Part shown: positions 17,926 through 56,907 of the stretch, in pieces
How positions within the stretch are numbered: position 1 is the stretch's first letter
How the letters are laid out: each line of letters starts with the position of its first letter
Assembly (NCBI GenBank): GCA_041737295.1
Contig: JBGSSA010000030.1
Coordinates: 24,193-88,192 of the forward strand
DNA from: Bacteroidales bacterium
GTDB lineage: Bacteria > Bacteroidota > Bacteroidia > Bacteroidales > UBA10428
DNA length: 64,000 bases
Reading direction: 5' to 3'
Position numbers and translations under genes: made by a program
Notes under the pieces: generated by a model
What the model saw: only the letters and a program-made list of their open reading frames with translations
Told to the model about the DNA's origin: nothing
Databases searched by the model: none

Positions 17926-17943
17926 TCAGGGTGTTAAAATAAT

Positions 17944-17975
17944 CCGTAAATTGGATACAATAACCAGTAATTTGG
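17944..17975 (+). promoter_or_regulatory. Tandem direct repeat, probable AraC-family binding site
   Basis: GTAAATTGG (17946) and GTAATTTGG (17967), 21-bp period, upstream of an AraC gene. Confidence 0.5.
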
Positions 17976-18029
17976 TTGCTTACGTATTCCTCAGAGTTGA
18001 TTTACTTTGTATCCGGAAGACTTAATACA

Positions 18030-35574: not shown

Positions 35575-38500
35575 ATGCCTGCCCGGCAGGCTTTAAGGAA
35601 CGTTATGAAGAATACCTTTCTGGGAATACCCATTCATAACCGCCGCGAGGGGATCATGTTAACATTTGCCTCCCTTCAGGCCTTTTCTATTGGCGCATTC
35701 ACGGCATTATTCGCTATAGGTTCGCATGTGCTTTTCCTCCAGTCGTGGGAACCCGCTATAATGCCACAGGCTTTTGTATTTTCAGGTGTTTGGGGAATTC
35801 TGCTGTTTACATTCTATTCCGCATTTACAAACCGGGTCAACATAACTCTTTTTGCACCCCTTGTAATGCTGGTTGCCCTGTTGCTGAACCTCTTTTGTTT
35901 TTTCTTTTATGACGACGTAATAAATTACAACATTTCGGGCATACCCATGATGTTCCCTTTTGTATTGGCCATCCCCCTGCCGATTGTTGTCATGGTTGTC
36001 TTCAGAAAATCGCTGCGGTACCAGTTATCACCCGAACAGCACCGAAGATTGAATCCGTTTATTCGTACCGCGCAGATGGCGGGAATCATACTTTCAAGCT
36101 ATGCCCTGGTTGGCTCCCTGTTTATCGCCTGGGATATGCTCATGATCATTGCATTCAGTGCAATTTTTATCGCTCTTGCAATTTTGCTCCAGCTGCCGCT
36201 AAGCCTTATTTACCGTTATTCACCCCGGTTCCAGCCGGTGGTGAAGCGTTCAAACCAGCTTCGTTCACGTTTTTATGAATTATTCTATACCCGGTATACC
36301 TTTTTATTAGTTGCTTTCGTTCTGCTATCCGCCATAACGGGATTTATACTCCATTTTCATTTCGTGGCTGAAACAAGGGCGTACTACTCAAATACAATCG
36401 GACTGGCAAAATTCTTCGGCTTTTTCATGGGCACCATGTTTCTTTTTGTATATGGTGTTGAAAAATTCCTTGTCAGGAAAATTCTTTACTCCTACGATTC
36501 ACCTTACAGTCTTGTCCTGATCCCTGTTGTCCTCATACTGACCTCGCTGGCCACCCTGGCCATTGACCTGTTATTCGGAACCACCACGCTCATTGCGCGG
36601 TTTTCTTTTGGTTTTATGATGGTAGCCATGCTGAAAACCGGCTATGAAACCACGCTGGAATCAATTGAACTTCCTTCCCTGAGGGTATTGTTCCGCACCA
36701 TGGACCTGCGCTTCAGCAATGCGCTTATCCCCCGGTTTGAAGGCTCTTTCCGTATGCTGGCCCTGTTATTGGCCGGACTGGTTCTTTCTGCACTGATGTT
36801 TTTCAACCTTACGGGCAGCCTGTTTTTGAACCTCGCTGTTCTTGTATTTAGCCTGATCTGGCTCCCGGTGAGTATATTTCTGGTTAAGGGATATCAGAAT
36901 GCCCTGCGGGAAACCATACGGCGCCTCAAGACAAGTAAAAAGGCTATACAGGCGGAACTTTTAAATACAGACGAAAAAACCCATCACCTGATCAACGACC
37001 CGAACCCGGTAAAATCTATCAATACACTGTCGCTGGTTGAAAAACTTGAGCCCCTCACCCATGAGAAACACCTGCTATCATTGCTGGGAACTGATTCTCC
37101 GGAGCTGAGAAAATACCTGCTTGAACGGATCGAGGAAAATGCCTTGCTGAGTTCGTTCACCAGGCTCAAGGAGCTTCAAGCCATACATCATAAGCACCCG
37201 GGGAACCATCTGCCCAAACTTGTGAACCGATTTGAGTTGAAATTCAGCGTGGGTATTGATTATGAATCCATATGCCGTCTCACAAATTCCAAAATTCTTA
37301 CTGACCGCATACTGGCTGCCGAACTGATCGGAAATTCGGGAAACAAGGAATATGGTGACCTCCTGCTTTTTCTACATCGCGACATCGAACCCGACGTAAA
37401 ACTGGCTGCCGTGAAAGCCATGGCCCGTATGGCCCATCCCGATCACAGCTATATCCTTATCGGTTACCTCACCACCCCGGTTTATTATTCCTATGCCTTT
37501 GAATCATTGGTACGTATTGGTGATCCGGCAGTTCCATATATGGAACAGGCATTCCTTTTGCCGGATGCGGATAATATCCTGCTTTCAAGAATTGTAAGAA
37601 TATATGGTAAGATAGGCACCCAGGCTGCCATTGACCACCTTCTCGGAAAAATAGAAAACCAGAACCGTACTGTTGTCAGGCAAACCCTCCTGGCATTGCG
37701 CGAGGCTAAATTTCAGGCCACCCCGGGAAACATCAACCGTATACTCAATGACATTGTGCGGCTGATCAACGTAATGTCATGGAACTTTGCGGCCTATTCA
37801 AGCATTAATACATCGCCCCGGTTTTCCCTGCTCGTGGAAGCCCTTGAATCGGAAATTGCGGATAACTATAATACCTTGTATCACCTTCTATCATTGGCCT
37901 ACAATCCCACTTCCATAGGAAATATAAAGAATTTGCTTCTCGAAGGAAGTGATACCGATATCAGCTTTGCCATTGAGCTTCTTGACCAGATTGTAAATGA
38001 AGAAATCAAACAGGTATTTTTCCCGATCGTTGAAAATATTTCCGTAAAGGAACGCTTCAAGCAACTTCAGTATTTCTTCCAGGCTGTGCGCGAATTGCCG
38101 GATGAATTGATCCAGGATATCATCAATCGCGATTTTAACATGCTTTCGCTGTATGCAAAGAGCTGCGCTCTCTATTGCCTTCCTATCCTCAACAAACAGG
38201 AAGCAAGCCAGGAACTGGTTGCCAGCGTGTTTCATCCCAACCAGCTGATCCGCGAAACGGCCGCGTATGTGATGGAACAGATTGAACCCATGAAACTGGA
38301 ATCGGTTTTATCAAGACTCGACCCGGTTTGGGTAAATGAAATTAAATCCAGCCTTTCGCATGCCGGAAACGGCATCCCATACCTGCTGCTTCACCGTATA
38401 AGGTTTATCAAGGCCTGCCGGCAGATGAAGTCCATTTCGGAAGATATCCTGCTTGAAATAACCAAAGTGCTGGATGTTAATATTTTAAAGCAGGATGAAG

Positions 38501-38769
38501 AATTTCTGATCAAACGTGATGATGTGCATTATGCCTTCATGATTATTATTGAAGGAACTGCGCAAATAAAGATTTCTTCGGGTAAAGTATTTACCTTTGA
38601 CAAAAATGATATAATTTACAGCGACATTTTTGTTGAGGATAATACATTTTCATTGCGTGCGCTTACCGACCTCCGCATGTATAGTCTGGAACAGGAGGCC
38701 CTGAATTCATTAATGTTCGATTACATCGATTTCAGGAATGCCATACTCGATATAGTTGAAGAAGCTTAA
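35575..38769 (+). CDS. Multi-TM NTT/MFS-like transporter fused to HEAT repeats and a C-terminal cNMP-binding-fold domain
   Basis: About 12 hydrophobic helices in the first ~440 aa ending Y...L; HEAT repeats (DRILAAELIG, DVKLAAVKAMA, IRETAAYVM); C-terminal FIK...SEDIL...FMIIIEG...LRALTD. Confidence 0.72.
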   Translation: MPARQALRNVMKNTFLGIPIHNRREGIMLTFASLQAFSIGAFTALFAIGSHVLFLQSWEPAIMPQAFVFSGVWGILLFTFYSAFTNRVNITLFAPLVMLVALLLNLFCFFFYDDVINYNISGIPMMFPFVLAIPLPIVVMVVFRKSLRYQLSPEQHRRLNPFIRTAQMAGIILSSYALVGSLFIAWDMLMIIAFSAIFIALAILLQLPLSLIYRYSPRFQPVVKRSNQLRSRFYELFYTRYTFLLVAFVLLSAITGFILHFHFVAETRAYYSNTIGLAKFFGFFMGTMFLFVYGVEKFLVRKILYSYDSPYSLVLIPVVLILTSLATLAIDLLFGTTTLIARFSFGFMMVAMLKTGYETTLESIELPSLRVLFRTMDLRFSNALIPRFEGSFRMLALLLAGLVLSALMFFNLTGSLFLNLAVLVFSLIWLPVSIFLVKGYQNALRETIRRLKTSKKAIQAELLNTDEKTHHLINDPNPVKSINTLSLVEKLEPLTHEKHLLSLLGTDSPELRKYLLERIEENALLSSFTRLKELQAIHHKHPGNHLPKLVNRFELKFSVGIDYESICRLTNSKILTDRILAAELIGNSGNKEYGDLLLFLHRDIEPDVKLAAVKAMARMAHPDHSYILIGYLTTPVYYSYAFESLVRIGDPAVPYMEQAFLLPDADNILLSRIVRIYGKIGTQAAIDHLLGKIENQNRTVVRQTLLALREAKFQATPGNINRILNDIVRLINVMSWNFAAYSSINTSPRFSLLVEALESEIADNYNTLYHLLSLAYNPTSIGNIKNLLLEGSDTDISFAIELLDQIVNEEIKQVFFPIVENISVKERFKQLQYFFQAVRELPDELIQDIINRDFNMLSLYAKSCALYCLPILNKQEASQELVASVFHPNQLIRETAAYVMEQIEPMKLESVLSRLDPVWVNEIKSSLSHAGNGIPYLLLHRIRFIKACRQMKSISEDILLEITKVLDVNILKQDEEFLIKRDDVHYAFMIIIEGTAQIKISSGKVFTFDKNDIIYSDIFVEDNTFSLRALTDLRMYSLEQEALNSLMFDYIDFRNAILDIVEEA

Positions 38770-38778
38770 GACCGGGAA

Positions 38779-40239
38779 ATGAAATTTGAACACGACATAT
38801 TTATCAGTTACGCCCCTGCGGCAGGATCGGAGAACAATGCCGTATCGGAATGGTCGTTGAAATTTTGTGATTACCTGGGAGCCCTGATGACCAGGCTATT
38901 TGATAAAAAGCCTGTGATCATGCTCCACGATGACCTAAGGATGAGGCAATCCATGCTCGGGGAAAGTTACCAGGGTATAATTTCGGGAACCGCCGTGATC
39001 GTGGTCATTCTCTCCCCCGACTATATTCAATCCACCACCTATATGAAGGAGCTGGAGGATATTTTCAGTACCCTGCATAAACACGAATCGGAAACAGGTA
39101 TCCGGCACCGCATATTCAAAGTGATCAAGCAGCCTGTCACCCAGGAGGAACAGCCTTCATTTCTGAAAAAAGAACTGAATTACAATTTCTTTGAGATCAA
39201 CCGGTATAATAAAAAGCCCATAACTTATGATCTGAGCGGAAAGAATGAACCCGATCCGAAATTCTGGTCGAAACTGGTTGATTTAGCCTATGATATTGCC
39301 GATGCAGTATCCGATCTTTCAGGTGACAAGGCGGATAATATTCCGGGAAAGGAACGTCCCGGTGTATTTCTGGCAGAAACAAGTTTTGACCAGGTTGAAA
39401 ACAGGGACATGCTGAAACGTGAATTGCAACACCTCGGTTTCCGTGTACTTCCCTTTACCCAGATTCCGGATGATGCCGAGAAAGCCCGTGCCGCTATTGA
39501 ATGCAGCCTCGATCAGTCCATTATGGCTATTCATTTGCTGGGTGCCTGGTATGGAGATTTCATCAAAAATTCGAAATATTCCTTTATTGATTTCCAGATA
39601 AAAACTGTCAAGGATTATCTGACTATACGAAAAGATCCCTCTGCTTTCAACCAGCTGATATGGATACCTAATGATATCAAACCCACAGATCAGCGGCAGG
39701 CGCTTTACCTGAAGAGGCTTAAAAGAGACGAGGCCCAGTATAGTACAGAAATTATCGAGACCCCGTTCGAGGTATTTAAAACAATCCTCAACGCCCGGCT
39801 GAGCGAACTTACGAATCCCACAATTGTTCCCCGGGCAGAAAAAAACAAGTTGTATGTGATCTATGAAAAAGAAAGCAAGGATATCATTGCAGAATACCTG
39901 CAGCAGATCCGGGCGAAAGGTTTTGAAATCATGGAATCACACGGGGATAACGGAAATTACTATCCCCTTACAAAGCATATCAATAACATGCTCATCGCCG
40001 ATGCAGTGCTTATATATAAAGGTGATTGTCCGATGGATTGGCTGAACAGCAAAATACGGGACCTTGTAAAGGCACCCGGATATGGAAAAAGCAAACCATT
40101 CAGGGCAATAGAGATCATTTCAAAACAGAAAACTGCTGATAAGTCATTGTTGTTTTTAAATAATGTTCCCGTTATATGGGATGACGAAATGAATACCGAA
40201 GTGATTACTCATTTTTTAGATCATTTGGCAAAGAAATGA
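38779..40239 (+). CDS. TIR-domain protein with additional TIR-like/flavodoxin-fold modules
   Basis: HDIFISYA; VILSPDYIQSTTYMKEL; second module VFLAE...ELQHLGFRVLP; third module LYVIY...GFEI...ADAVLIY. Confidence 0.78.
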   Translation: MKFEHDIFISYAPAAGSENNAVSEWSLKFCDYLGALMTRLFDKKPVIMLHDDLRMRQSMLGESYQGIISGTAVIVVILSPDYIQSTTYMKELEDIFSTLHKHESETGIRHRIFKVIKQPVTQEEQPSFLKKELNYNFFEINRYNKKPITYDLSGKNEPDPKFWSKLVDLAYDIADAVSDLSGDKADNIPGKERPGVFLAETSFDQVENRDMLKRELQHLGFRVLPFTQIPDDAEKARAAIECSLDQSIMAIHLLGAWYGDFIKNSKYSFIDFQIKTVKDYLTIRKDPSAFNQLIWIPNDIKPTDQRQALYLKRLKRDEAQYSTEIIETPFEVFKTILNARLSELTNPTIVPRAEKNKLYVIYEKESKDIIAEYLQQIRAKGFEIMESHGDNGNYYPLTKHINNMLIADAVLIYKGDCPMDWLNSKIRDLVKAPGYGKSKPFRAIEIISKQKTADKSLLFLNNVPVIWDDEMNTEVITHFLDHLAKK

Positions 40240-43200
40240 CCGAAAATCCTCCCCGGCATATTAAAAAGAGCACCCTTACCCTGGCAAATCCGTTCCCCGG
40301 ATTGCGCCCTTTCAGTGTGGAAGAAAGTCACCTGTTTTTCGGGCGTGAGGGGCAATGTGAAACGGTCCTCAGATATCTTACCCGTAATCGGTTCGCTGCT
40401 GTAACAGGGGCTTCGGGAAGCGGAAAATCCTCCCTCATTTATTGCGGACTTATCCCTGCATTATACGGTGGATTTATTACAGAAGCCGGATCGAAATGGA
40501 GGATTATCGCCACAAGGCCCGGTAACAGTCCTGTCGAAAACCTGGCGGAAGCCATTGCCGTCAGTGAAAAAAATGGTACCACATCCGAGGAACTGTCGTT
40601 AAACAAGCAGATCCTGTATACAATATTAAGGCGGAGCTCTTTCGGGCTTGTAAACGCTGTAAAACAAACCCGGCTTGCCGAGGGCGAAAATATACTGCTG
40701 ATCCTTGACCAGTTTGAGGAACTGTTCCGGTATAAGGAAAGCCGGAAAGACAGCACTGTATTCAATGAAACGGAAGCATATATCAAACTGCTTGTCAATG
40801 CTTTGAAACAAACCGATCAGCCCATTTACGTGGTGCTTACCATGCGCTCCGATTTTATAGGTGAATGTTCACAGTTCCAGGAACTCACCCGGCTGATCAA
40901 CAAGAGCAATTTCCTGATCCCCCAGATGACCAGGGATGATTTTAAGGATGCCATCATGGGTCCCCTTGCGGTAGGAGGTGCCAATATAGATCCCCAATTG
41001 CTGCAGCATCTGCTGAATGCTATTGAAGATAAGAATGACCAGCTTCCGGTATTGCAGCATGTAATGATGCGGACCTGGGAATTCTGGACCCGTAACAATG
41101 AAAACGGCATTCCTTTGCGGACAAGGGACTACGAGGCAGCCGGCAAGATTGAGAATGCCCTGTCGATGCATGCCAACGAGGCTTTTGATGAACTTACCGA
41201 CGAGGGCAAGGCCATTTGCCGCGCCATGTTCAAATGCCTCACAGAAAAAGGGACCGATAATAAGGGAACCCGCCATCCGGCCACTATAAAACATATTGCT
41301 GAGATTGCACAGGCACCTGACCAGATGGTGATTGATGTGGTGAGCAAGTTCAGGGCAAAGGGCCGTTCATTTCTGACACCCGGGGAAGGAATTCCAATCG
41401 ACAGCGATACAATTATTGATATTTCCCATGAAAGCCTTATGCGAATATGGGACAGGCTGAGATTGTGGGTGGACGAAGAATTTTCATCCGTGCAGATGTA
41501 CCTGCGCCTGGCAGAAGCTGCTTCGCAATACCAGGTAGGAAAAACCGGATTATGGAGGCCGCCTGACCTGCAGTTGGCCCTTAACTGGAAAAAAACGCAG
41601 CAGCCCTCGCTGGCATGGGCTAAAAAGTACAACCCGGCCTTTGAAAAGGTTATGGTATTTCTTGATGCCAGTGAAAAAAAATACCTGCAGGAAGAACAGA
41701 ACAAGGTGCGGCTTCAGCGCATGGAACTTAACCGTACCCGCAAATTTGCAGTAGCCATGCTTTCTGCAGCCGTTGCTTTCCTGTTTATCTCGGTATGGGG
41801 CTTCCAGCAGCGTGGTGAAGCCATGAAAAAGGCAAAGGAAGCGGACAATTCACGGGCAGAAGCAGAATTCCGTAAAAAGGAATCCGACAGTTTACGGACA
41901 GTTGCAGAGGGAAAAGCCGACAGGGCTGACGTAGAGCGTATGCTTGCACAAATTGATGCCGATTCAGCCGAAAAAAACAGGGTAGTGGCCTTGTTCAAGT
42001 CCCAGATTTCTGAGCAACAGAAATTGCTGGCTATTCAGCAGGCCGCGGAGGCAACTAAAAAAAGTGAGACCTTCAAAAAAGAAAAGGAAGAATCACAAAA
42101 GACTGCTGAAAAAGCCATTGAGGAGCAGAATGTGACGGAAAAAGAAAAGAACCTGGAGTTTACCAAACGCATTCTGGCCATTGCCCAGACTATGGCAGGC
42201 AAAGCCTCTCAGGTGGAGGATAAAAACCTGAAAGGATTGCTGGCCTACCAGGCTTATCTCTTTAATCGTGATTATGATGGACAGGTTGACCAGCCGGATA
42301 TTTTTAATGCATTGTATAATGCCCTTACCGGTTTCAACGGCGACAAATTCAATGGCTTACAGGGGCACGAGGGCGCTGTGAGATCACTGGCATTCCTGCC
42401 CGGTACCAGTGCGTTCTTCAGCTCAGGTGGCGATGGAAAGATCCTGCGCTGGGATCTGAATGGCAATACCAAATCATACCGCACACTCATCGACAACAAC
42501 TTTATTAACCGGAGCCTGTCGGTCAGTCCAAATGGCCGTTGGCTTGCATGCGGAACCACCACTTCCGGAATACAACTTTTTAACCTGAATGCCCAAAATA
42601 GTCCGCCTTCTATATTGCAGGGACATAAGGGCTGGGTGGAGTCTCTCATTTTTACACCGGACAGCAAGGGATTGTTTTCCGCGAGTACCGACAAAAGCAT
42701 TATTTACTGGGACCTGATTTCAGGGACGAATACAGTATTTCTCTCCATGGAAAGCACAAGGGTAAGATGTCTTGCTGTTGCCCCTGCCGGTCGCTTTATG
42801 TATGGCGGTACCGATGACGGTCAGCTCATAAGATGGAATCTGGATACGAAAGAAGCCACCGTTGTATTCAGATCAGAGAATAATTCAATATATGCCGTAT
42901 CTATTAATTCAAGCGGCTCCCGAATTGCATTCGTGGATAAAAACGGGGCTCTTCGAGTTGCCGACACAAGAACAAACGGAATTCTGAAAGTTGTTCCCGC
43001 TCATTCCGCCCGCAGCCTCGATGTGAAATTCAGTCCGGATGACCGCCAGATCGCTACTACAAGCATGGACAAAACAGTAAAAATATGGGATGCCAATAAC
43101 CTGGGAAACAAACCCATTGTCATATCGAAACATAATGCCTGGGTCCTGTCCATTGCCTTCAGCCCGGACGGCAAATACCTGGTGTCTTCAAGTGAGGATG

Positions 43201-43346
43201 GCGATTACATTTATTACTGGCTTGCCCATTCCTCTCTCATGGCAGAGCAGATGTGCGGCAAACTGGGACGCAATTTTTCCCAGCGGGAGTGGGAGACTTA
43301 TATCAGTTACGATATTCCCTATCAAAAAACCTGTGCAAATAAATAA
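40236..43346 (+). CDS. nSTAND1 NTPase - TM helix - coiled coil - WD40 propeller (Hat/HatR-like)
   Basis: NPFPGLRPF, FFGRE, GASGSGKSS, LDQFEE, MRSDF, LPVLQH, SHESL; TM FAVAMLSAAVAFLFISVWGF; about 7 GH...WD repeats. Confidence 0.9.
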   Translation: MTENPPRHIKKSTLTLANPFPGLRPFSVEESHLFFGREGQCETVLRYLTRNRFAAVTGASGSGKSSLIYCGLIPALYGGFITEAGSKWRIIATRPGNSPVENLAEAIAVSEKNGTTSEELSLNKQILYTILRRSSFGLVNAVKQTRLAEGENILLILDQFEELFRYKESRKDSTVFNETEAYIKLLVNALKQTDQPIYVVLTMRSDFIGECSQFQELTRLINKSNFLIPQMTRDDFKDAIMGPLAVGGANIDPQLLQHLLNAIEDKNDQLPVLQHVMMRTWEFWTRNNENGIPLRTRDYEAAGKIENALSMHANEAFDELTDEGKAICRAMFKCLTEKGTDNKGTRHPATIKHIAEIAQAPDQMVIDVVSKFRAKGRSFLTPGEGIPIDSDTIIDISHESLMRIWDRLRLWVDEEFSSVQMYLRLAEAASQYQVGKTGLWRPPDLQLALNWKKTQQPSLAWAKKYNPAFEKVMVFLDASEKKYLQEEQNKVRLQRMELNRTRKFAVAMLSAAVAFLFISVWGFQQRGEAMKKAKEADNSRAEAEFRKKESDSLRTVAEGKADRADVERMLAQIDADSAEKNRVVALFKSQISEQQKLLAIQQAAEATKKSETFKKEKEESQKTAEKAIEEQNVTEKEKNLEFTKRILAIAQTMAGKASQVEDKNLKGLLAYQAYLFNRDYDGQVDQPDIFNALYNALTGFNGDKFNGLQGHEGAVRSLAFLPGTSAFFSSGGDGKILRWDLNGNTKSYRTLIDNNFINRSLSVSPNGRWLACGTTTSGIQLFNLNAQNSPPSILQGHKGWVESLIFTPDSKGLFSASTDKSIIYWDLISGTNTVFLSMESTRVRCLAVAPAGRFMYGGTDDGQLIRWNLDTKEATVVFRSENNSIYAVSINSSGSRIAFVDKNGALRVADTRTNGILKVVPAHSARSLDVKFSPDDRQIATTSMDKTVKIWDANNLGNKPIVISKHNAWVLSIAFSPDGKYLVSSSEDGDYIYYWLAHSSLMAEQMCGKLGRNFSQREWETYISYDIPYQKTCANK

Positions 43347-43352
43347 TCTAGA

Positions 43353-45604: not shown

Positions 45605-45684
45605 AATTTTAAGATCAACACATAATTCCGTTCTCCCGAACCCCATTTAGTGCGGTTTATCAAATTATCGGCATATATTACCGG

Positions 45685-45700
45685 TAAATTTGTATTTTTG
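45685..45700 (+). promoter_or_regulatory. -7 promoter element(s) upstream of the giant surface protein
   Basis: Adjacent TAAATTTG and TATTTTTG. Confidence 0.5.
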
Positions 45701-45766
45701 TAGCTATTGTGGGAAACAGCCTTCAACCCCAACCTGTGAACACGTTTATTATCTAAAAATTCCATT

Positions 45767-48700: not shown

Positions 48701-51700
48701 ACGGATGCAGATGATATTAACCTGGCATCTGCCACTATCACCGTTTCAGGAAATTATCAAAACGGCGAGGATTTCCTTTCATTTACCAATGCCAATGGGA
48801 TCACATCCTCCTGGAATGCCGGGTCTGGCCAGCTAACCCTTTCCGGAAGTGCAACCGTTGCCGTTTACCAGGCCGCATTGCGATCAGTTAAATATGCCAA
48901 TACAAGTTCCAACCCGAATACTGCCACAAGGAATATTACTTTCAGGGTAAGTGACGGCACCGATGTCAGCAACCTGCAGAGCAGGAATATCATCATAACT
49001 GCTGTGAACAATCCACCTGTGCTTGGAAGTATCGAAAGCGCCGATCTTAACTATACGGAAGGGGATGGCCCGGTTTCCGTTTCGGGTACGATTTCGGTAA
49101 CAGACGCTGATAATCTTACCCTGCAGTCGGCAACAGTATCAATATCTGCCAATTACAGGAATACCGAGGATATTCTGTCCTATGCAACTGCAAATGGAAT
49201 TACAGGTTCGTGGAATGGCACATCCGGGGTTCTTACCCTTACGGGTAACGTAAGTCCGGCGAACTACCAGACCGCCCTGCGCGCAGTAAAATATACGAAT
49301 ACAAGCGGCAATCCGAATATCACCGACCGCACCGTTTCATTCCAGGTGAGCGATGGTACACTAAGCAACGTGGTGAACCGGAATATTAAAATCACCCGGA
49401 CCGGGGTATTCAGCAGCAGCATTGCAGGTTCAGCAAGTTATTGCCCTTCCGCAGTAATGCCAATTGTTCTGACAGTTATCGATGGTACATCCCCTTTTAC
49501 TGCAACACTTACCCGCACAGGTAGCGTGCTGAACAGGGATACAGTGATCACAGGCATTGCTGCCTCACCTTATACCATTAATGTGAAGCTTACGGGAAGC
49601 TATGTATTAAAAAAACTTACCGATGCACTCAATGAAGAAGCGATTGTAACCGCAACTCCGGTTGTCCTGGCTGCATTTCCCAAACCAAGGGGAGTATTAT
49701 CAGGCCCATCGACAGTTTGTAATGACGGACAGCCGGTTCAGCTTTCCCTGAACCTGACTGGAACATCTCCCTGGAATTTCACGATCCGGAGGGGCAACGC
49801 CATTTATGATACCACCATTACAGGTGCCACTTCTGATCCGTATCCATTTAGTACCCGGGTCACTTCTTCGCCCATGACCGTCCGGTTGATTGCCATTTCC
49901 GATGCCCATTGCACAGGGGATACAATCGGTTCAGGTACAGTAAGGGTCACTTATCTGCCCTCTCCTGCAGCTGTAATTTCGGGTCAGGATACGATATGCC
50001 CGGGAGGTACCGGGAATCTTAAGGTAACCATCACGGGTGCTGCAGGTCCCTGGGACATTACCTATCTCAGGGATGGCGCCAATCCGACCACTATCTCCAA
50101 TATTACCGTTTCACCCCACACATTTCCGGTAACGGGAACAGGGAATTTTACCCTTTCAAAAGTCGAGCAGACTATTGCCGACGGCTGTACGGGCAGGGTG
50201 AGCGGCACAGGAAGGATTGTTTCTCATGTGGTGCCCACAGCTTCAATATCAGGTAATTTAACCTTTTGCCAATATACCTCTGCTAACCTGAACGTTACCC
50301 TCACCGGCAATTCACCATGGAAGTTCAAGTATAAGCTTAATTCCGAATCCCCCATAGAGGTGCTGAATGTTTCCTCAAGTCCGAAAACATTGTCAATCAA
50401 CAAAGCAGGGACCTATACGCTGGTTGAAGTTTTTGATAAAAACTGCAAAGGTACAATATCCGGCTCCGTAGGTGTTACAATGACCCCGGCGCCGGTGGTT
50501 AGCCTGTCGGGACTGGACCCTGCCTATAATAAAAATTCAACGGAAAGGTTTCTCCTTACCGGTACACCTTCGGGGGGTACATTCTTGGGTCCCGGCGTGA
50601 TATTTTACCTTGATGATTGGTATTTTTTACCTTCCTTTGCTCCCGCTGGAACACATGATATCGTGTATTCCTATCGCCAAACGCCCACATCCTGCTACGG
50701 TTATGATACGGCAGTTGTGAGGGTGCTTGAAGCCGATGCAAGTATCGATTTTCCTGAAGAACGTGTGAAATACTGCCAGAACGAAGAGCCTTTTGCGGTC
50801 ACGGGATGGAATATTGCCAACGACATAGGAAGCTTTACAATCAGCGGCGGAGTTGGTCTGACAGACCACGGCGACAATACGGCTACGGTAAATCCGGCCC
50901 TGTTGAGTGTAAGGGATTATACAATCACATATACCTACTTTGACGGCACCACGCTGAATGTAGAAAGTACGTTTGAAATGGGCAGACCTCCCCAGGCAGA
51001 TTTCAGATGGGAATCCGAATGCTATGAACCCGGACAGTCCATTCAGTTTATGGATGCTTCCGTGGCAAACTTCGGAAATATAACAGCCTTTAATTGGAAA
51101 ATATACACATCCACCGGCTTTGATACGGATTCTACAAAGGATATCAGCTATACATTCCCTAAGGCCGGCAATCACATCATTGAATTGCAGGTAGAGACCT
51201 CCAATGGATGCTCTGCAAGTGTGTCGAAAGTATTTGGATTGAGGCCTATTATTACTCCGAAAGCAGATGGTTTCAGAACCGAAACATTTGAGGAGGGCCC
51301 CCTCAGCTGGCGAAGCAGTAACCTCGCTGCACCGGCAACCAACAGCTGGACACTGGGCACTCCGGATGATCCATCCGGGATTCACGGAGCCTATAGCGGG
51401 ATTAACAGCTGGTATACCGACCTTGCAGAATCAAATTACGCTTCCGAAAAATCATGGGTCTCAAGTCCATGCTATGATTTTACGGGCATGAACAGGCCAA
51501 TGGTGAAAATAAACATATGGCGTGATTTCAATGGCCGCCGGGATGGTGCAGTTTTACAGGCAACAACAGATAGCGCAAGATCCTGGTTTAACATCGGCCA
51601 AATTGGGGACGGGCAGAACTGGTTCAACGAATACACAATCCTCGGAAATCCGGGTGGGCAGCAGGTTGGCTGGTCTAATATACAGGATGCCGGCTGGATT

Positions 51701-52798
51701 GAATCCCGGCATGCACTCGATATGCTTAAAGGAAAAACCAGGGTGCAATTCAGGATAGCGTATGGTTCCGACGGCACCGTGCTGAATACCAACGGTTTTG
51801 CATTTGACGACTTCTGGATCGGTGAGCGTAACAGAAGGGTGCTGATCGAACATTTTACCAATACATTCGATGCGGCCAGTCAGGATGCGAATGACAAACT
51901 GAATGCCATTGTGAATGAGGATTCAATCAATACGATCGATCTGCAGTATCATACTTCTTTCCCGGGTAATGATCCGTTCAATGAACAGGAACCCTTTGCA
52001 CCCAGTTCAAGAGTTCTGTATTATGGAATTTCGAATGTTCCCTATGCCATCCTGAACGGTGGTTACAAACAGGGTTACCGGTTCGACTATGACAGCAAGG
52101 ATCTGGATGCAAACACCATCCGCCTGGAATCTTTGAATGATGCCCTGTTTACTATCGATATTACCGAATCCCATTTTTCAAATAATAATGCGATATTTCA
52201 AATTCAGTTCGGACCCAAACATGATTTGACTGCCCATGAATATACTCTTCATGCCGGTATTTTTGAAAGAAAGGTAATGGGAGCAGGCATCAATGGGGAT
52301 ACAATTTATGAAAACGTGGTAAGGGCCTTTCTGCCTGATCCTGCAGGTATTACCATTTTTGAGGATTGGAAGGCGATTGACGGCAGAACGCAGGACTACT
52401 CCTGGAGTATTCCTGAAGGTATTAACCCGGGCGGGCTTATGGCCTTTGCCTTTATACAGGATGAAGCAACCTCTGAAGTATACCAGGTTAATTGGGTTAA
52501 CATCGGTTTTTCAACAGAAATACCCGGGGTATTGCCCGGAACATCACGCGTGAAGTTCATTGTATTCCCCAATCCGGCCAGGGATCAGGCATTTGTCCGT
52601 TTTGACAAACCGGTGAAAGGCGATGTGAGAATTGAAATGTTCAATAACCTGGGAAGCCTTGTGTATACTGAAAATATTTCACAGACTGACACCGATACCG
52701 AAATAATGACAGATAGATATCCCGATGGATTATACATTATCAGGATAATCGCAGGAAATGAAATTTTGGGAGTTACTAAACTGAATATTACAAGATAA
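45767..52798 (+). CDS. Giant T9SS-secreted repeat surface protein (cadherin/Ig-like stalk, PKD, MAM-like, Omp28-like, type A CTD)
   Basis: Signal ATG|Q; 3 ~97-aa VNxAP repeats plus a Big_9-like unit; six 133-aa repeats; GxxPW Ig units; ADF..PKD; VLIEHFTN; FPNPA...GLYIIRI...KLNI. Confidence 0.88.
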   Translation: MKTGTLVNRFVLSLICFSLITHFNGATGQTLPVTDIPDQTIDRGQSFSTISLDDYIDVRPNERHNIEWTTSGENQLSVNIDNDRNASVVPLSETWTGSETITFHAMDTDLNTGSDAAMFTILQAVNAAPVVIDIPDQQYEEGEGFQAFNLDNYVTDPDHSAAELTWSTSGNSALSVNIDPDTHTAIIDVPNADWNGSETIVFKATDPESESSEDQATFSLTPVNDAPVMSDIPGETINSDELFNTIALDDYVSDVDNLNSELSWTITGNTDLMPSVDESRIASINMPSNWSGSEVLTFEVKDPSNSGDSDDATFEAMAINAAPVAVDDNYATTQGATLNIAAPGVLSNDTDLDLDPLTAIKVTDPSHGTVTLNSDGSFSYAHDGTASTTDAFTYKASDGTTESNVVTVTIDITLVNVPPVLGGIEGSALDYTEGDGPVSVTGSIIITDADNANLASAVITISGNYQNGEDVLSFTNANGISGSWNSTSGQMTLTGNASVADYRSALRAVRYTNSSATPSTLTRTVTFRVNDGTDNSNTQSRNISVTALNSAPVLAAIEGSTLAFTEGDGPVNVTATITVTDADNTNLASAVITISNNYQNGEDVLSFTNTASITGSWNSTSGQMTLMGSASVADYRSALRAVRYTNNSATPSNLTRTVTFRVNDGTDNSNTLSRNISVTALNSAPVLAAIEGSTLAFTEGDGPVNVTATITVTDADNTNLASAVITISGNYQNGEDVLSFTNTASITGSWNSSTGQLTLSGNTSLLNYRNALRAVTYTNSSATPSTLTRTISFRVNDGTDNSNTQTRNISVAGSNTAPVLAAIESNTLGYTEGDGPVNITGSITVTDVDNTNMASAVITISSNYQNGEDVLSFTNTASITGSWNSSTGQLTLSGSASIAAYRTALRAVRYTNNSATPSNLTRTVTFRVNDGTDNSNTQTRNISVNAFNSVPVLGSIETSALSYTEGAGPVNITATLTATDADDINLASATITVSGNYQNGEDFLSFTNANGITSSWNAGSGQLTLSGSATVAVYQAALRSVKYANTSSNPNTATRNITFRVSDGTDVSNLQSRNIIITAVNNPPVLGSIESADLNYTEGDGPVSVSGTISVTDADNLTLQSATVSISANYRNTEDILSYATANGITGSWNGTSGVLTLTGNVSPANYQTALRAVKYTNTSGNPNITDRTVSFQVSDGTLSNVVNRNIKITRTGVFSSSIAGSASYCPSAVMPIVLTVIDGTSPFTATLTRTGSVLNRDTVITGIAASPYTINVKLTGSYVLKKLTDALNEEAIVTATPVVLAAFPKPRGVLSGPSTVCNDGQPVQLSLNLTGTSPWNFTIRRGNAIYDTTITGATSDPYPFSTRVTSSPMTVRLIAISDAHCTGDTIGSGTVRVTYLPSPAAVISGQDTICPGGTGNLKVTITGAAGPWDITYLRDGANPTTISNITVSPHTFPVTGTGNFTLSKVEQTIADGCTGRVSGTGRIVSHVVPTASISGNLTFCQYTSANLNVTLTGNSPWKFKYKLNSESPIEVLNVSSSPKTLSINKAGTYTLVEVFDKNCKGTISGSVGVTMTPAPVVSLSGLDPAYNKNSTERFLLTGTPSGGTFLGPGVIFYLDDWYFLPSFAPAGTHDIVYSYRQTPTSCYGYDTAVVRVLEADASIDFPEERVKYCQNEEPFAVTGWNIANDIGSFTISGGVGLTDHGDNTATVNPALLSVRDYTITYTYFDGTTLNVESTFEMGRPPQADFRWESECYEPGQSIQFMDASVANFGNITAFNWKIYTSTGFDTDSTKDISYTFPKAGNHIIELQVETSNGCSASVSKVFGLRPIITPKADGFRTETFEEGPLSWRSSNLAAPATNSWTLGTPDDPSGIHGAYSGINSWYTDLAESNYASEKSWVSSPCYDFTGMNRPMVKINIWRDFNGRRDGAVLQATTDSARSWFNIGQIGDGQNWFNEYTILGNPGGQQVGWSNIQDAGWIESRHALDMLKGKTRVQFRIAYGSDGTVLNTNGFAFDDFWIGERNRRVLIEHFTNTFDAASQDANDKLNAIVNEDSINTIDLQYHTSFPGNDPFNEQEPFAPSSRVLYYGISNVPYAILNGGYKQGYRFDYDSKDLDANTIRLESLNDALFTIDITESHFSNNNAIFQIQFGPKHDLTAHEYTLHAGIFERKVMGAGINGDTIYENVVRAFLPDPAGITIFEDWKAIDGRTQDYSWSIPEGINPGGLMAFAFIQDEATSEVYQVNWVNIGFSTEIPGVLPGTSRVKFIVFPNPARDQAFVRFDKPVKGDVRIEMFNNLGSLVYTENISQTDTDTEIMTDRYPDGLYIIRIIAGNEILGVTKLNITR
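47024..49400 (+). repeat. Six tandem 399-bp (133-aa) repeats
   Basis: Unit starts at 47024, 47423, 47822, 48221, 48620 and 49019. Confidence 0.92.
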
Positions 52799-52902
52799 GC
52801 ACCTTGTTGGATTTATCCGGATCAACCGGTTGAACAAGTTATCGTGTGATATTGTTATGCTAGGACATATCCGGCCCTACCAGCCTGAAAAATTTCGCAG
52901 TT

Positions 52903-55900
52903 ATGAATACTGGAAATTATCTCTGCCGTGCCCTAACTCTCCTGGCTGGACTGTTTTGGCTGGCCCTGTCTACAGTTCTGCCGGCGGAAGGTGAGTTGTA
53001 CATATTGTATAAGGATATACATGCAGCCCCCATTTTGAACAGAATTGAATCTGCTGACCTGCTTTATGAAACAGGAAGCGGAAGAGCCGATATAACAAAC
53101 TCAATTACCATATCTGACACGGACAGCAAAAATCTCCGGTCTGCAACCATACGAATTACCGAGGGCTACCATGCCAATGAAGATATCCTGAATTTTAAAA
53201 ATCAAAACGGAATTATCGGATTCTGGAATAAAAACACGGGAATCCTTACACTTGCGGGCAGTGCCTCACTATCGAACTACAGGTCTGCACTAAGGAGTAT
53301 ACAATACGAAAATACTAATGCTGTCAATCCTTCCAATGACAGGCGAAAGGTGACATTTACCGTTAATGACGGCCTTACAAGCAGCAATACGGTTTACAGG
53401 TATATCACTATTTATATTCCAAACGATGCCCCCGTGCTGGGAAATATTGAAACTTCGCAAATTGTTTATTGTGTGAATTCCGGTGAGATTCCGGTTACAT
53501 CCTCGATATCGGTTTCGGATGGAAATAACCAAAACCTCAGCTCGGCCAAAATTCAGATTACCAGTAACTATACCCGAAATGAGGATTTCCTCCGGTTTAC
53601 CAATCGCAATGGAATTACCGCGTCGTGGGATGCATCCGATGGAATCCTTACTCTCACAGGCATTGCCTCCAAGGCCGATTACCAGCAGGCCCTGAGGAGC
53701 ATCCGCTATGAAAATACAAATTCCGAAAACCCTGAAACCGGAGTTCATACAGTATCTTTTGTAGTGAATGACGGAACGGTATATGGAAATTCAGTCAGTC
53801 GGGGCATTTATGTGAACGGCCCGGTGAGTGCTGTACTGAATGGGAATGCCACCCTGTGCGGTGATGAATCGGCCTCCATACCGCTTGAAGTTAAATTTCA
53901 GGGAACACCCCCCTGGAAATTTACAATTACAAGGAATAACGGAAACGAAAGGAACTATGACAGGATCAGTGAAAATCCCTATAGTTTTAATGTAAACCAG
54001 CAGGGCACATACCGGATCAAATCAATATCAGATGCCAATTGTACAGGGGATACAACCGGATCAGGTTCCGTTAAAATTACATTCAATACCCCGCCCACTG
54101 CTGTCCTGTCAGGCGGCGACACTATCTGCCAGGGCGGAACCGCAGAGCTTTCCGTCCTTCTGACCGGCAAAGCACCCTGGAATTTAACTTATAACCGCAA
54201 TGGTTCAAATCCAACCGTTATCAATAACATCAATACCCCGAATTACAAATTAAGGATCACTTCGTCCGGAATTTATACCCTGTCAGCCGTGACAGATGCC
54301 TTATGTACCAATGGAAAGATCTCGGGAAGTGCATCGGTGATACAACTCCCGGCAGCCACGGCGCTACTTTCAGGTGACGTTTCCATATGTGAAAACGCAT
54401 CCGCAGCATTAAGTGTTAGTCTTACCGGTACTGCACCATGGCGTTTCAGCTACAAAAAGGACAACGGAACACCGGTTATCGTTCAGGATGTAAATGCGAG
54501 CCCAAAGACGGTTGCCGTTAACCAGGCAGGATATTATACCCTTTTTGAAGTTTATGATAAAAATTGTAAAGGTACAGTATCCGGTTCAGCGAGGATCCAG
54601 ATACAACCTGCCCCGGATGTAACTTTATCGGGACTGGCATCTGCCTATAACAAGGACTCTTCTGAACTGGTTCCTCTGTTTGGTTCACCTGCAGGGGGCA
54701 TATTCTCCGGCCCCGGAGTGATACCCTACAATAATGAATGGTATTTCCTTACTTCCCTTCCCCCGGCAGGAACCCATCACATTGTTTATGCGTATCGCCA
54801 ATCACCCACATCCTGCTTTGGATATGATACGGTAGTCGTCAGAATATTGGAGGCAAGCGCGGTGATTGATTTTCCTCAAAACCGCACCAACATTTGCCGG
54901 AACGAAGAACCATTCACCATCAGGGCAGTCAACCTGAATAACAGCATCGGTAATTTTACAATAGCCGGCGGGATCGGGCTTATAAATAACGGTGATAACA
55001 CGGCAACAATTGACCCGCGTGGACTTGGTGCCGGCAATTATACAATTACCTATACCTATACCGATGTTACAACCTTTTCAGTAAAAAGGACCTTTGAGAT
55101 CGGAAATGCGCCGGTGGCTGATTTTAAATGGGAATCCGAATGCTTTGAGCCGGGACAGTCCATTAGTTTTAGAAATACTTCTGCAACTACTTTTGGCAGC
55201 CTGGAAGAATTTGTGTGGACAGTCTCGGCTGAAGGCCGGATAGATACCTTTACCACTGAAAATATAGAATTCGCGTTTGCGGACGAAGGACGGTATGTTA
55301 TAAACCTGACCGTTAATACTACAAACGGATGTACAGGCGAGGTTTCCAAAACACTGGGTTTAAGTTTGCCCATTGAGCTGGCAGGCCGGTATTTCCATGA
55401 AGATTTTGAAGATTCTACCCTGACCTGGCATTCCAATACCCTGCATTCAAACACGGTGAACAGCTGGACACTAAGCGGCATATCCAAAGGATTTACTCAT
55501 ACGGAAGAGGGACGCCTTTTCTGGCATACCTATATTCCTTCCCAGATTGGTCCCGTTGAAGAATCCTGGGTTACAAGCCCCTGCTTCGATTTTTCGGGCA
55601 CCGATAAACCTATGGTCATACTGGATATCTGGCAGCGGTTCAACAACCTGAGGAACGGAGCCGCCCTCCAGGCTACTTCCGACAGTGGCAAAACATGGAC
55701 TAATATCGGACTACTTGATGATGGCATAAACTGGTTCAACAGTTATGAGATCAGGGGGAACCTGGGGAATCAGCATGTCGGATGGGCCGGATTCCAGGAA
55801 AACGAATGGATGGAATCCCGCCATGACCTGGATATGCTGAAAGGCAAGAAAAGGGTTCAGTTCCGGATGATCTACGGATCGGATGGCACTGCCCTGAATT

Positions 55901-56907
55901 CAGACGGGATAGCGTTTGATAATTTCATTATTACGGAAAGAAACCGGAATGTCCTCCTTGAGCATTTTACAAATTCATCCGATTCAGCATCCAGAATAGC
56001 CAATGGCTTTATCAATACTATGGTGGGTGCCGACTCAACAAACCTGGTTGACCTTCAATACCATACCTCATTTCCCGGCCATGATCCGTTCAATGCACAG
56101 GATCCCTATGTTTCCAACTCCAGGTTACTGTATTACGGTCTTGTGGATGTACCTTATACAATCCTCAACGGGGGAACCGAAATTTCTAACCGGATTGATT
56201 ACAGAGAGAGAAAGCTGACCGGGAAACCCTTGCGGTATGAATCCCTTGAAGATACAAAATTCAAGGTACAGGTATATTCCAAACTTGAAAATAACAACGC
56301 CCTTTATATAAATACATGGGTCACTGCCATGGATGATATGCCTTCCGGTGAATACACGGTACATGTTGGTGTGATTGAACGAAAGATCACTGAGGAGACT
56401 GGGACCAACGGGGAAACTGTATTTGAAAATGTGGTAAAGACATTCCTGCCCGACCCTGCCGGCACCACGCTCTACAGGTCATGGAATACAAATGATATGG
56501 ATACGGTAGATAATTACTGGTATCCGCAAAATGTATATAACCTCAATGAACTCAAGGTATTTGCATTTATCCAGGATGAATCTACAAATGAAGTATACCA
56601 GGTCGCACTGAACAATATTGACCTGATCACAGGTATACGGAATTCATATTCGTCCGATAATACACTTTTTACTTATCCTAATCCCGCATCTGACAAGGTA
56701 TTTGTGAAACTTGACAAACCCGTTAACGGTTTTGTCAGACTGGATTTTTACAATAATCTGGGTGCCCTGGTGAAATGCGTTGAGGTTCCCGGAACATCAG
56801 ACGAAAAGGAAATCTCCACTTCCCAGTTCCCTGATGGCATGTACATTATCCGTGCTGTATCGGGGACTTCATTATTGGGTGTGCAAAAACTGAATATCAG
56901 TCATTAA
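52903..56907 (+). CDS. Shorter paralogous T9SS surface protein
   Basis: Two 133-aa-type repeats, three GxxPW Ig units, then the same PKD/MAM-like/Omp28-like/CTD order (YPNPA...GMYIIR...KLNISH). Confidence 0.88.
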   Translation: MNTGNYLCRALTLLAGLFWLALSTVLPAEGELYILYKDIHAAPILNRIESADLLYETGSGRADITNSITISDTDSKNLRSATIRITEGYHANEDILNFKNQNGIIGFWNKNTGILTLAGSASLSNYRSALRSIQYENTNAVNPSNDRRKVTFTVNDGLTSSNTVYRYITIYIPNDAPVLGNIETSQIVYCVNSGEIPVTSSISVSDGNNQNLSSAKIQITSNYTRNEDFLRFTNRNGITASWDASDGILTLTGIASKADYQQALRSIRYENTNSENPETGVHTVSFVVNDGTVYGNSVSRGIYVNGPVSAVLNGNATLCGDESASIPLEVKFQGTPPWKFTITRNNGNERNYDRISENPYSFNVNQQGTYRIKSISDANCTGDTTGSGSVKITFNTPPTAVLSGGDTICQGGTAELSVLLTGKAPWNLTYNRNGSNPTVINNINTPNYKLRITSSGIYTLSAVTDALCTNGKISGSASVIQLPAATALLSGDVSICENASAALSVSLTGTAPWRFSYKKDNGTPVIVQDVNASPKTVAVNQAGYYTLFEVYDKNCKGTVSGSARIQIQPAPDVTLSGLASAYNKDSSELVPLFGSPAGGIFSGPGVIPYNNEWYFLTSLPPAGTHHIVYAYRQSPTSCFGYDTVVVRILEASAVIDFPQNRTNICRNEEPFTIRAVNLNNSIGNFTIAGGIGLINNGDNTATIDPRGLGAGNYTITYTYTDVTTFSVKRTFEIGNAPVADFKWESECFEPGQSISFRNTSATTFGSLEEFVWTVSAEGRIDTFTTENIEFAFADEGRYVINLTVNTTNGCTGEVSKTLGLSLPIELAGRYFHEDFEDSTLTWHSNTLHSNTVNSWTLSGISKGFTHTEEGRLFWHTYIPSQIGPVEESWVTSPCFDFSGTDKPMVILDIWQRFNNLRNGAALQATSDSGKTWTNIGLLDDGINWFNSYEIRGNLGNQHVGWAGFQENEWMESRHDLDMLKGKKRVQFRMIYGSDGTALNSDGIAFDNFIITERNRNVLLEHFTNSSDSASRIANGFINTMVGADSTNLVDLQYHTSFPGHDPFNAQDPYVSNSRLLYYGLVDVPYTILNGGTEISNRIDYRERKLTGKPLRYESLEDTKFKVQVYSKLENNNALYINTWVTAMDDMPSGEYTVHVGVIERKITEETGTNGETVFENVVKTFLPDPAGTTLYRSWNTNDMDTVDNYWYPQNVYNLNELKVFAFIQDESTNEVYQVALNNIDLITGIRNSYSSDNTLFTYPNPASDKVFVKLDKPVNGFVRLDFYNNLGALVKCVEVPGTSDEKEISTSQFPDGMYIIRAVSGTSLLGVQKLNISH

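Follow-up and report, generated by a model that had tools for sequence, protein, structure and literature searches.

In the FecA-FecR-FecI pathway, an outer-membrane receptor reaches into the periplasm with an N-terminal extension and thereby connects to an inner-membrane protein that spans the membrane once and bears its output domain in the cytoplasm. To our knowledge, the signal routes that cross both membranes of Gram-negative cells rely on anti-sigma factors or on two-component relays, and the STAND/NLR proteins characterised so far sense in the cytoplasm. Fusions of a nucleotide carrier (NTT), HEAT repeats and a cyclic nucleoside monophosphate (cNMP)-binding domain (cNBD) have been described as being of unknown function, in the part available to us of a report that also lists Bacteroidetes NTTs (PMC5381601). 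Here we analyse a stretch of 64,000 nucleotides from a Bacteroidales bacterium (assembly GCA_041737295.1, contig JBGSSA010000030.1, positions 24,193 to 88,192; hereafter, the window), containing seven genes, g1 to g7 (Table 1), that combine such a fusion with a TIR-like protein, a STAND NTPase, an outer-membrane barrel, a lipoprotein and two type IX secretion system (T9SS) cargo proteins. We lean towards reading this operon as an outside-in relay, built from STAND parts, that would carry signals from the cell surface to the cytoplasm and would be regulatory rather than devoted to killing phage-infected cells.

A first-pass annotation of the window had listed seven open reading frames on the forward strand with gaps of 9 and 6 nt and two ATGA overlaps, all of which proved correct; from g1 to g7, the intergenic spacings are 9, −4 (ATGA), 6, −4 (ATGA), 162 and 104 nt. 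For comparison, we used a search for related loci seeded with an alignment of g3. The gene-presence tallies for barrel-type loci below refer to 104 related loci minus 10 (eight sporadic TIR/nSTAND1 loci, L106 and one duplicate), counting only those with enough flanking sequence; these loci were chosen by their similarity to g2 or g3 and are kin to one another, so they are not independent. The five core genes, g1 to g5, occur as co-oriented neighbours in 57 of 72 loci, a frequency indicating that their grouping is more than chance and bearing out the co-conservation implied by the first-pass annotation. Individually, g1 is present in 74/77 loci, g2 in 78/90, g4 in 85/91 and g5 in 81/88.

The product of g3 matches nSTAND1 (PF20703) with an E value of 4e-94 and 316.7 bits, against a cut-off of 27.1, and its Walker A motif, Walker B motif (Asp158/Glu161) and sensor arginine are intact in 103/103 operon STAND homologues; on these motifs, we take it to be a true nSTAND1 NTPase. 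No N-terminal effector is fused to this NTPase, the nSTAND1 match starting at residue 19. A membrane helix follows the NTPase in all 94 long operon homologues, with a mean of 5.3 Lys/Arg residues before it and 2.5 after it. Additionally, the C-terminal Cys1007 and Cys1033 are both present in 60 of 76 homologues, both absent in 15 and mixed in one, and being kept or lost together in 75/76 is the pattern that an extracytoplasmic disulphide should give. The helix and the co-lost cysteine pair support the topology proposed in the annotation, with the STAND crossing the inner membrane and its WD40 repeats outside the cytoplasm, so that the sensor repeats would be extracytoplasmic and the NTPase and propeller would lie on opposite sides of the membrane. 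The intervening stalk has approximately 130 residues which, at 0.15 nm each, amount to about 19 nm, near the width of a periplasm. The distance between Arg502 and Ala654 stays the same modulo 7 in 94/96 proteins from loci with a barrel and in 38/38 from loci with a TonB-dependent receptor (see below), as a coiled coil of fixed register would give; the span between these anchors is 152–173 residues in the TonB type, on average longer than in the barrel type (mostly 138–159). Two single cases depart from this architecture: a single STAND homologue is extended at its C-terminus by a stretch that matches SPOR (peptidoglycan-binding) weakly and under cut-off (L004:9423-9740; E 0.004), and one gene for a membrane helix, stalk and WD40 repeats lacks the STAND half, has a Mutator transposase upstream and looks disrupted (L115:8509-11744).

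The OMP_b-brl_2 barrel of g4 is preceded by a helical domain of about 100 residues with a cysteine pair. Folding the WD40 part of g3 with mature g4 gave a score of 0.78, the best of three controls reaching 0.00; the mark for a contact was reached by 116 of 157 solved pairs and by 2 of 215 mismatched pairs, rates that are rough here, where our own alignments were used. Contact agreement among runs was at least 93%, the predicted local distance difference test (pLDDT) of the partners was at least 78, and all confident g4 contacts fall within residues 46–119, in the helical domain. The models thus predict a contact of the WD40 propeller with the helical domain at the N-terminus of g4, hereafter the docking domain, in line with the WD40-barrel link in the first-pass annotation. 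A profile of the docking domain retrieved 1275 representatives at 1e-10, and a protein search for fusions gave only close barrel-type matches among the best 120 of 1025. Four proteins have two tandem copies of the domain, three ahead of a barrel and one without it (P0123, P0131, P0174 and P0213).

A separate line of support comes from the distribution of the docking domain. In two genomes, the same helical domain heads a TonB-dependent receptor placed after the STAND, and in a sample of 351 genomes of the phylum all seven full-length genes for a STAND, membrane helix and WD40 repeats found outside the host have a docking domain directly downstream. A metagenome scan seeded by TonB-receptor motifs alone retrieved 79 loci, several of them near-duplicates, of which 74 contain the docking domain. 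A STAND/WD40 gene lies directly upstream in 64 of the 70 with flanking sequence, and in two of the six exceptions such a gene stands a little more distant; a g1 homologue is located downstream in 30/36, and g2 was found in 7/50. Independently of the modelled contact, these arrangements suggest that the docking domain is shuffled between barrels and TonB-dependent receptors. The second form of the system (L106, L107, L115 and L140-L218) is composed of the STAND with its membrane helix and WD40 repeats and a TonB receptor with the docking domain, often accompanied by GNAT, NTT-HEAT and propeller histidine kinase genes; its receptors match a plug and a barrel, with no match to STN. Neighbours in the sampled TonB-type loci include genes for histidine kinases, REC-SpoIIE, STAS, RsbW-like and GNAT proteins. 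Some loci of this type (L196, L197, L200, L203 and L205-L216) have a divergent STAND-WD40 gene, in many cases with another WD40 gene behind it; when tested on L197, the first 400 residues of this other gene's product had no Pfam match.

The docking domain also appears with other partners. Locus L116 (7548-9791) encodes a protein with a TIR domain (TIR_2, E 2e-15), membrane helix, stalk and WD40 repeats and no STAND, followed by a lone docking domain of 172 residues and a T9SS gene. Weaker copies (E 1e-7 to 1e-17) immediately follow genes for membrane Ser/Thr kinase-PEGA proteins in 6 of 16 loci, and may represent a variant of this wiring based on kinases. In the kinase-PEGA loci L117, L119, L124, L126, L127 and L131, and also in L122 and L129, the docking copy is usually ahead of a T9SS-type cargo.

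With respect to the surface components, Cys17 of g5 (44471-44473) is invariant in 76/76 homologues, and the protein is modelled as a beta-propeller (pLDDT 95.6), for which no family with a name emerged from a search of the Atlas. Positions +2 to +8 have a net acidic character in 64 of the 76 homologues, with the strict K-(D/E)2 pattern in only nine, and this stretch resembles the surface-export signal of lipoproteins, as given in the part of PMC5080379 available to us. Because of this likeness, g5 is probably surface-exposed, and not periplasmic as first annotated. Both g6 and g7 have a signal peptide and a type A C-terminal domain (TIGR04183; 28.9 and 32.3, respectively, with a cut-off of 23), the translocon protein SprA is present in the genome, and the two proteins share 45% identity over 1320 columns, in agreement with their annotation as two paralogous T9SS surface proteins. 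The base of g6, comprising the last 525 residues before the tail, aligns in 24/24 complete cargo genes located after g5 in related operons, with 26–52% identity, and the first 600 residues of g6 align over 300 residues or more in 0/24. From the alignment of the base, we consider the gene after g5 in related operons to be an orthologous cargo. The protein g6 contains six tandem repeats of 133 residues (window 47012-49400; starting at residues 416, 549, 682, 815, 948 and 1081), of which g7 keeps fewer. Upstream of g6, at 45685-45700, there are two adjacent TAnnTTTG boxes, which we take to be the Bacteroidota promoter consensus, and the g6 cargo may be separately promoted from them; a sigma-70 promoter scan upstream yielded three sites versus 1.3 expected, all on the opposite strand, with a consensus that is uninformative for this phylum.

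Layout, motifs and co-occurrence were read from sequence and the contact between WD40 and docking domain from models, and from these we infer the surface complex, the cue, the direction and the output of the relay. The STAND, anchored in the inner membrane, would extend its predicted coiled-coil stalk across the periplasm, and its WD40 propeller would dock on the helical domain of the outer-membrane barrel. At the surface, a single complex could unite the barrel with the lipoprotein and the conserved T9SS base, and its variable tip would meet a surface, a polymer or another cell. Binding or load would then shift the docking domain, and the stalk would relay this change to the STAND, altering how it exchanges nucleotide and oligomerises, as other STANDs do. 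In the cytoplasm, the STAND would act on the HEAT part of g1, which we consider its most constant companion there (g1 is present in 74/77 barrel-type and 30/36 TonB-type loci), and the triple TIR-like protein would serve as an adaptor that is optional and not catalytic. The output would be regulatory, rather than cell death, and might proceed through a SpoIIE/PP2C phosphatase, STAS/anti-sigma partner switching, a histidine kinase or the gating of a small-molecule flux.

Table 1. Genes of the operon and features within their products (positions in the window)
Feature	Position	Strand	Description
g1	35575-38769	+	1064 aa; NTT-like 12-TM (transmembrane) carrier domain, HEAT repeats and degenerate cNMP-binding domain (NTT-HEAT-cNBD fusion)
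g2	38779-40239	+	486 aa; three tandem TIR/DUF4062-like domains
g2 candidate catalytic sites	Glu91, 39049-39051; Gln273, 39595-39597; Lys425, 40051-40053	+	domains 1, 2 and 3, respectively
g3	40236-43346	+	1036 aa; nSTAND1 NTPase, membrane helix, coiled-coil stalk and WD40 propeller
g3 Walker A	40407-40430	+	residues 58-65
g3 membrane helix	41739-41807	+	residues 502-524; basic residues on N-terminal side
g3 Ala-rich stalk	41808-42197	+	~130 residues; ~19 nm if helical
g3 WD40 propeller and C-terminal Cys1007/Cys1033 pair	42348-43343	+	predicted to bind the g4 N-terminal domain
g4	43353-44426	+	357 aa; signal peptide, helical TPR-like N-terminal domain and PorT-type (OMP_b-brl_2) outer-membrane barrel
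g4 N-terminal docking domain	43434-43733	+	residues 28-127; Cys33/Cys59; found on TonB-dependent receptors too
g5	44423-45604	+	393 aa; beta-propeller lipoprotein
g6	45767-52798	+	2343 aa; T9SS type A cargo; variable N-terminal stalk, conserved base
g6 conserved C-terminal base	50972-52546	+	residues 1736-2260; PKD, jelly-roll-like, Omp28-like
g7	52903-56907	+	1334 aa; T9SS type A cargo; shorter g6 paralogue

The first-pass annotation had also proposed that a nucleotide made by the TIR protein gates, or is moved by, the transporter fusion. The architecture it gave for g1, a nucleotide transporter joined to HEAT repeats and a cNMP fold, stands: g1 has about 12 hydrophobic segments, a profile of 15 membrane domains from its homologues matches only two solved ATP/ADP carriers, plant and chlamydial (E 6e-16 and 9e-10, respectively), and the full g1 profile also matches HEAT repeats and cNMP-binding domains, matches that lead us to consider g1 an NTT-HEAT-cNBD fusion. 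Pfam searches with g1 miss the NTT domain, and among 17 homologues one matches TLC and four match MFS_1. Its true start is perhaps the second ATG, at 35605, where a same-genus homologue starts, giving 1054 residues. The phosphate-binding cassette of cNMP-binding domains has the motif Gly-Glu...Arg-x-Ala, and this pattern occurs in 6/74 barrel-type and 4/19 TonB-type g1 proteins. As for the carrier, Glu245 and Lys527 of AtNTT1 are needed for exchange, according to the part of PMC3306366 available to us. In g1, Pro134 occupies the Glu245 column in 74/74, and there is no Lys among the common residues at the Lys527 column (residue 397), with a numbering offset inferred from the alignment; AtNTT1 Lys155 is outside the aligned part of g1. 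Three loci of 8.2–9.95 kb (L061, L062 and L064) keep only the HEAT/C-terminal half of g1, adjoining the STAND, and g2, g4, g5 and the cargo are absent from them.

The model of g2 has three alpha/beta domains (pLDDT 81), and the profile matches are weak (TIR_2, E 0.003; DUF4062, E 1e-4), with a match of the family profile to plant TIR domains at E 5e-5; a whole-chain fold search with the model gave mixed Rossmann-like matches, including the RPP1 TIR, with TM-scores of 0.31 or lower. Of the multi-TIR protein first annotated, the three domains are thus retained as modelled, with a TIR-like alpha/beta fold, and the TIR matches themselves are weak. We examined the candidate catalytic sites in 81 rows, including L106 and one duplicate. 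The glutamate of the first domain, Glu91, is kept in this window and in 31/81 operon homologues, compared with 7/7 sporadic relatives. At the likely catalytic site, the second domain has Gln273 in 79/81 and the third has Lys425 in 76/81; mean identity is lowest in the first domain (21%), with 35% in the second and 28% in the third. The register of the second and third domains follows the catalytic-site motif; for Gln273, the alignment with KpSwz is weak (E 0.1) and ends just before the site, and residue 271 is acidic in 78/81, so that the catalytic site may be displaced. The second and third domains therefore likely lack the catalytic glutamate, and changing Glu to Gln or Ala at this site inactivates DUF4062 NADases, as stated in the available parts of two preprints (bioRxiv 10.64898/2026.09.04.749371; 10.64898/2026.05.01.722283). 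Furthermore, 12 of 90 loci have retained the STAND and lack g2. Taken at the sequence level, g2 appears to be largely pseudo-enzymatic and dispensable in several lineages, and the first TIR may have residual catalytic activity here, where Glu91 is kept. Since g2 is missing from these loci, the motifs of g1 are degenerate and three loci keep g1 without its membrane half, the constant cytoplasmic pair is STAND and HEAT, rather than TIR and transporter. The proposed gating by a TIR-made nucleotide is not supported, in view of all these counts and of the presence of g2 in only 7/50 TonB-receptor loci.

Pairs of g2 and g3 homologues (TIR and nSTAND1) also appear sporadically elsewhere, with strong TIR_2 matches and with SLATT, TPR-S and patatin genes as neighbours. 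It is plausible that these conflict-type pairs are the source of the operon pair, and we infer a domestication from a conflict module, the quick tree being unrooted. In this tree, 41 barrel-type STANDs form one branch (Shimodaira-Hasegawa-like approximate likelihood ratio test, 99), with three barrel-type rows outside. The STAND half was found in 73/77 genomes of the host family (51/53 of those of high quality), in 34/34 other genomes of the host genus, in 75/121 genomes of one Cytophagales family (one of them, G885, unpublished) and in 15/351 genomes of an even sample of the phylum, in which two candidates per genome were scored; a g2 match was found in 34/201 genomes of the host order. The STAND is thus near-fixed in some lineages and was not found in most other sampled lineages, and within its carriers it is mostly single-copy. 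Two Cytophagales-family genomes hold, besides the full form, a second operon copy without the TIR gene (L102 and L104). A HAMP-SpoIIE gene is located within 31 of 82 operons.

These data bear on whether the operon is an immune system along the lines of the first-pass annotation, in which envelope damage or phage attack would act through the STAND on a TIR NADase, with a product that would either be lethal to the cell or target the transporter. We judge this quite improbable. It draws on the Glu91 kept in this window, on the match of the g2 family to plant TIRs, on the acidic residue 271, with the reservation that the KpSwz match fixing its register is weak, and on the sporadic relatives found near SLATT, TPR-S and patatin genes. 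Besides, nSTAND1 was defined in predicted conflict systems, in the part of PMC8195603 available to us, and DUF4062 domains act as defence NADases, according to the same portions of the two preprints. However, the candidate catalytic residues are eroded in most operon homologues, and the TIR gene is dispensable in barrel-type loci and infrequent in TonB-type ones. The system is also near-fixed and mostly single-copy amid housekeeping genes, which sits poorly with a phage or predator cue, and PADLOC yielded only a match in the WD40 region and one weak match, with no specific system, as the annotation had presumed.

Other arrangements of the same parts would leave out an outside-in signal. In one, which we consider unlikely, the bridge would work inside-out, with the STAND ATPase using it to assemble, hold, energise or release an outer-membrane complex (a giant T9SS protein or a TonB receptor) according to the cytoplasmic state. 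The predicted contact between WD40 and g4 has no direction; the cargo is conserved at its base and not at its tip; g4, g5 and the cargo were lost together in six loci that keep g1 and g3; and a triad of cargo, barrel and lipoprotein anchors the type B cargo in PorE-PorP-PG1035, as described in the available part of PMC9143113, all of which would suit such a machine. The cargo tail here is, nevertheless, of type A, and g1 and g3 persist without the surface half. The presence of the docking domain on unrelated outer-membrane proteins and, more weakly, after the kinase-PEGA genes suits a signalling link. Moreover, STAND NTPases are generally switches rather than motors. In the other arrangement, the operon would simply house two separate modules, the NTT-HEAT/STAND part sensing the periplasm by itself and an unrelated surface adhesin part. 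The six loci just mentioned, three of which have a g1 that lacks its transporter half, and the finding of the docking domain in 66 of the 77 host-family genomes versus the STAND in 73 are compatible with it. The predicted WD40-g4 contact argues against this separation, as do the tracking of the WD40 gene by the docking domain across two unrelated types of outer-membrane protein and the absence of the docking domain from all four host-family genomes without the STAND, and we regard two modules as very improbable.

Several observations weigh against the outside-in relay that we favour. The cytoplasmic half can persist alone, because g4 is absent from 6/91 loci and no docking gene was found in seven STAND-bearing host-family genomes, one of them in a single contig (G153). 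The operon of this window has no SpoIIE gene, and the best SpoIIE matches elsewhere in the genome span only the HAMP/phosphatase half. In the contact model, interface residues are no more conserved than the rest of the domains (0.47 versus 0.44, and 0.55 versus 0.53), and the top faces of WD40 propellers bind many helical partners, for which reason the model may lean on a general likeness between WD40 propellers and helical partners. Also, the genomes compared are kin and so do not count as independent, and some of the metagenome loci nearly duplicate one another.

The operon is flanked on one side by lysS, a parC/parE-type topoisomerase gene and shikimate-pathway genes, and on the other by flavodiiron-like and cytochrome bd-like genes; its GC content is unremarkable, and no full-length paralogues of g1 to g5 were found within the host genome. 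Upstream of g1, other loci (L005, L006, L047 and others) often have a gene for a Vut_1-family transporter, tested on L006, or for a shikimate kinase (19 loci). The host genome contains, at G000:C64:5493-7638, another barrel gene without a docking domain that adjoins a propeller-like lipoprotein gene. Elsewhere in the window there are a gene for MFS efflux of the DHA2 type and, after it, one for an AraC-type regulator (16540-18935; both under family cut-offs) and a gene similar to a molybdopterin oxidoreductase large subunit (3063-5240; PaoC/XdhA-like, under cut-offs).

We found no description of this operon in the literature, including the available parts of PMC8195603, PMC10907252, PMC7159879 and bioRxiv 10.64898/2026.10.19.760177; our search covered neither supplements, such as the source data of Kaur 2020/2021 and Major 2017, nor subscription papers, which could list the neighbourhood. 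We see about an even chance that the operon represents a previously undescribed class of signalling across the envelope. In it, the two halves of an NLR-like STAND would lie on either side of the inner membrane, and a coiled coil long enough for the periplasm, together with a WD40 propeller, would join it to a portable docking domain on an adhesin-linked barrel or a TonB receptor. A conflict module would thereby have been tamed into a core surface sensor, NTT-HEAT-cNBD proteins would gain a pathway, and membrane Ser/Thr kinases may be connected to T9SS proteins by this docking domain as well. If true, the wiring of a STAND to outer-membrane receptors would be a new signal route, as well as a case of immune hardware turned core sensor. 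Candidate hosts exist among named Cytophagales genera, namely Fulvivirga, Reichenbachiella, Ekhidna and Marinoscillum.

The operon resembles FecA/FecR in having an extension on an outer-membrane protein and a single-pass inner-membrane partner, the STAND, their contact here being only predicted, and one variant uses a true plug and barrel TonB receptor. Nevertheless, the extension is a helical, TPR-like domain with a cysteine pair and no STN match, the part of the transducer is taken by a STAND NTPase bearing a stalk and a WD40 propeller instead of by a FecR anti-sigma factor, and in the window the outer-membrane component is a small PorT-type barrel, accompanied by a T9SS protein. There is neither a FecR nor an extracytoplasmic function (ECF) sigma factor among the seven genes, with one divergent ECF sigma near L107.

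The presence of an nSTAND1 with C-terminal repeats beside TIR/DUF4062-like domains is shared with the nSTAND1 conflict systems, as far as the available parts of their descriptions go (Kaur et al. 2021, PMC8195603; Kaur et al. 2020, PMC7159879). In comparison with Avs/NLR-like defence, represented by the accessible portions on PsAvs2 with DUF4062/NIR (bioRxiv 10.64898/2026.09.04.749371) and Swarozyc (10.64898/2026.05.01.722283), the operon has its NTPase and propeller split across the membrane and lacks a fused effector; its TIR-like partner is eroded and optional, and it is near-fixed rather than patchy, has housekeeping neighbours and is tied to outer-membrane and T9SS genes. Likewise, TIR-ParA / FxsC-FxsT, in the available part of bioRxiv 10.64898/2026.10.19.760177, also has a multi-TIR protein with inactive TIRs upstream of an NTPase gene, and g2 shows a weak match to FxsC_Nterm (E 0.0025). 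The FxsC score is, however, 17.8 versus a cut-off of 130, and the operon has no ParA domain and possesses a membrane-split STAND with outer-membrane partners.

The grouping of a barrel, a lipoprotein and a T9SS cargo recalls PorE-PorP-PG1035 and SprF-SprB, where the barrel is the cargo anchor in the portion available of Gorasia et al. (2022, PMC9143113). Compared to these, the operon has a type A tail rather than type B, an OMP_b-brl_2 barrel rather than PorP/SprF, and a link to a STAND; unlike PorE, g5 consists of a propeller alone, lacking TPR and OmpA domains, and probably faces the outside of the cell. Finally, g1 shares its architecture with the NTT-HEAT-cNBD fusions of Major et al. (2017, PMC5381601) and stands in a STAND/envelope context that is absent from the available part of that description, providing a genomic context for these fusions.

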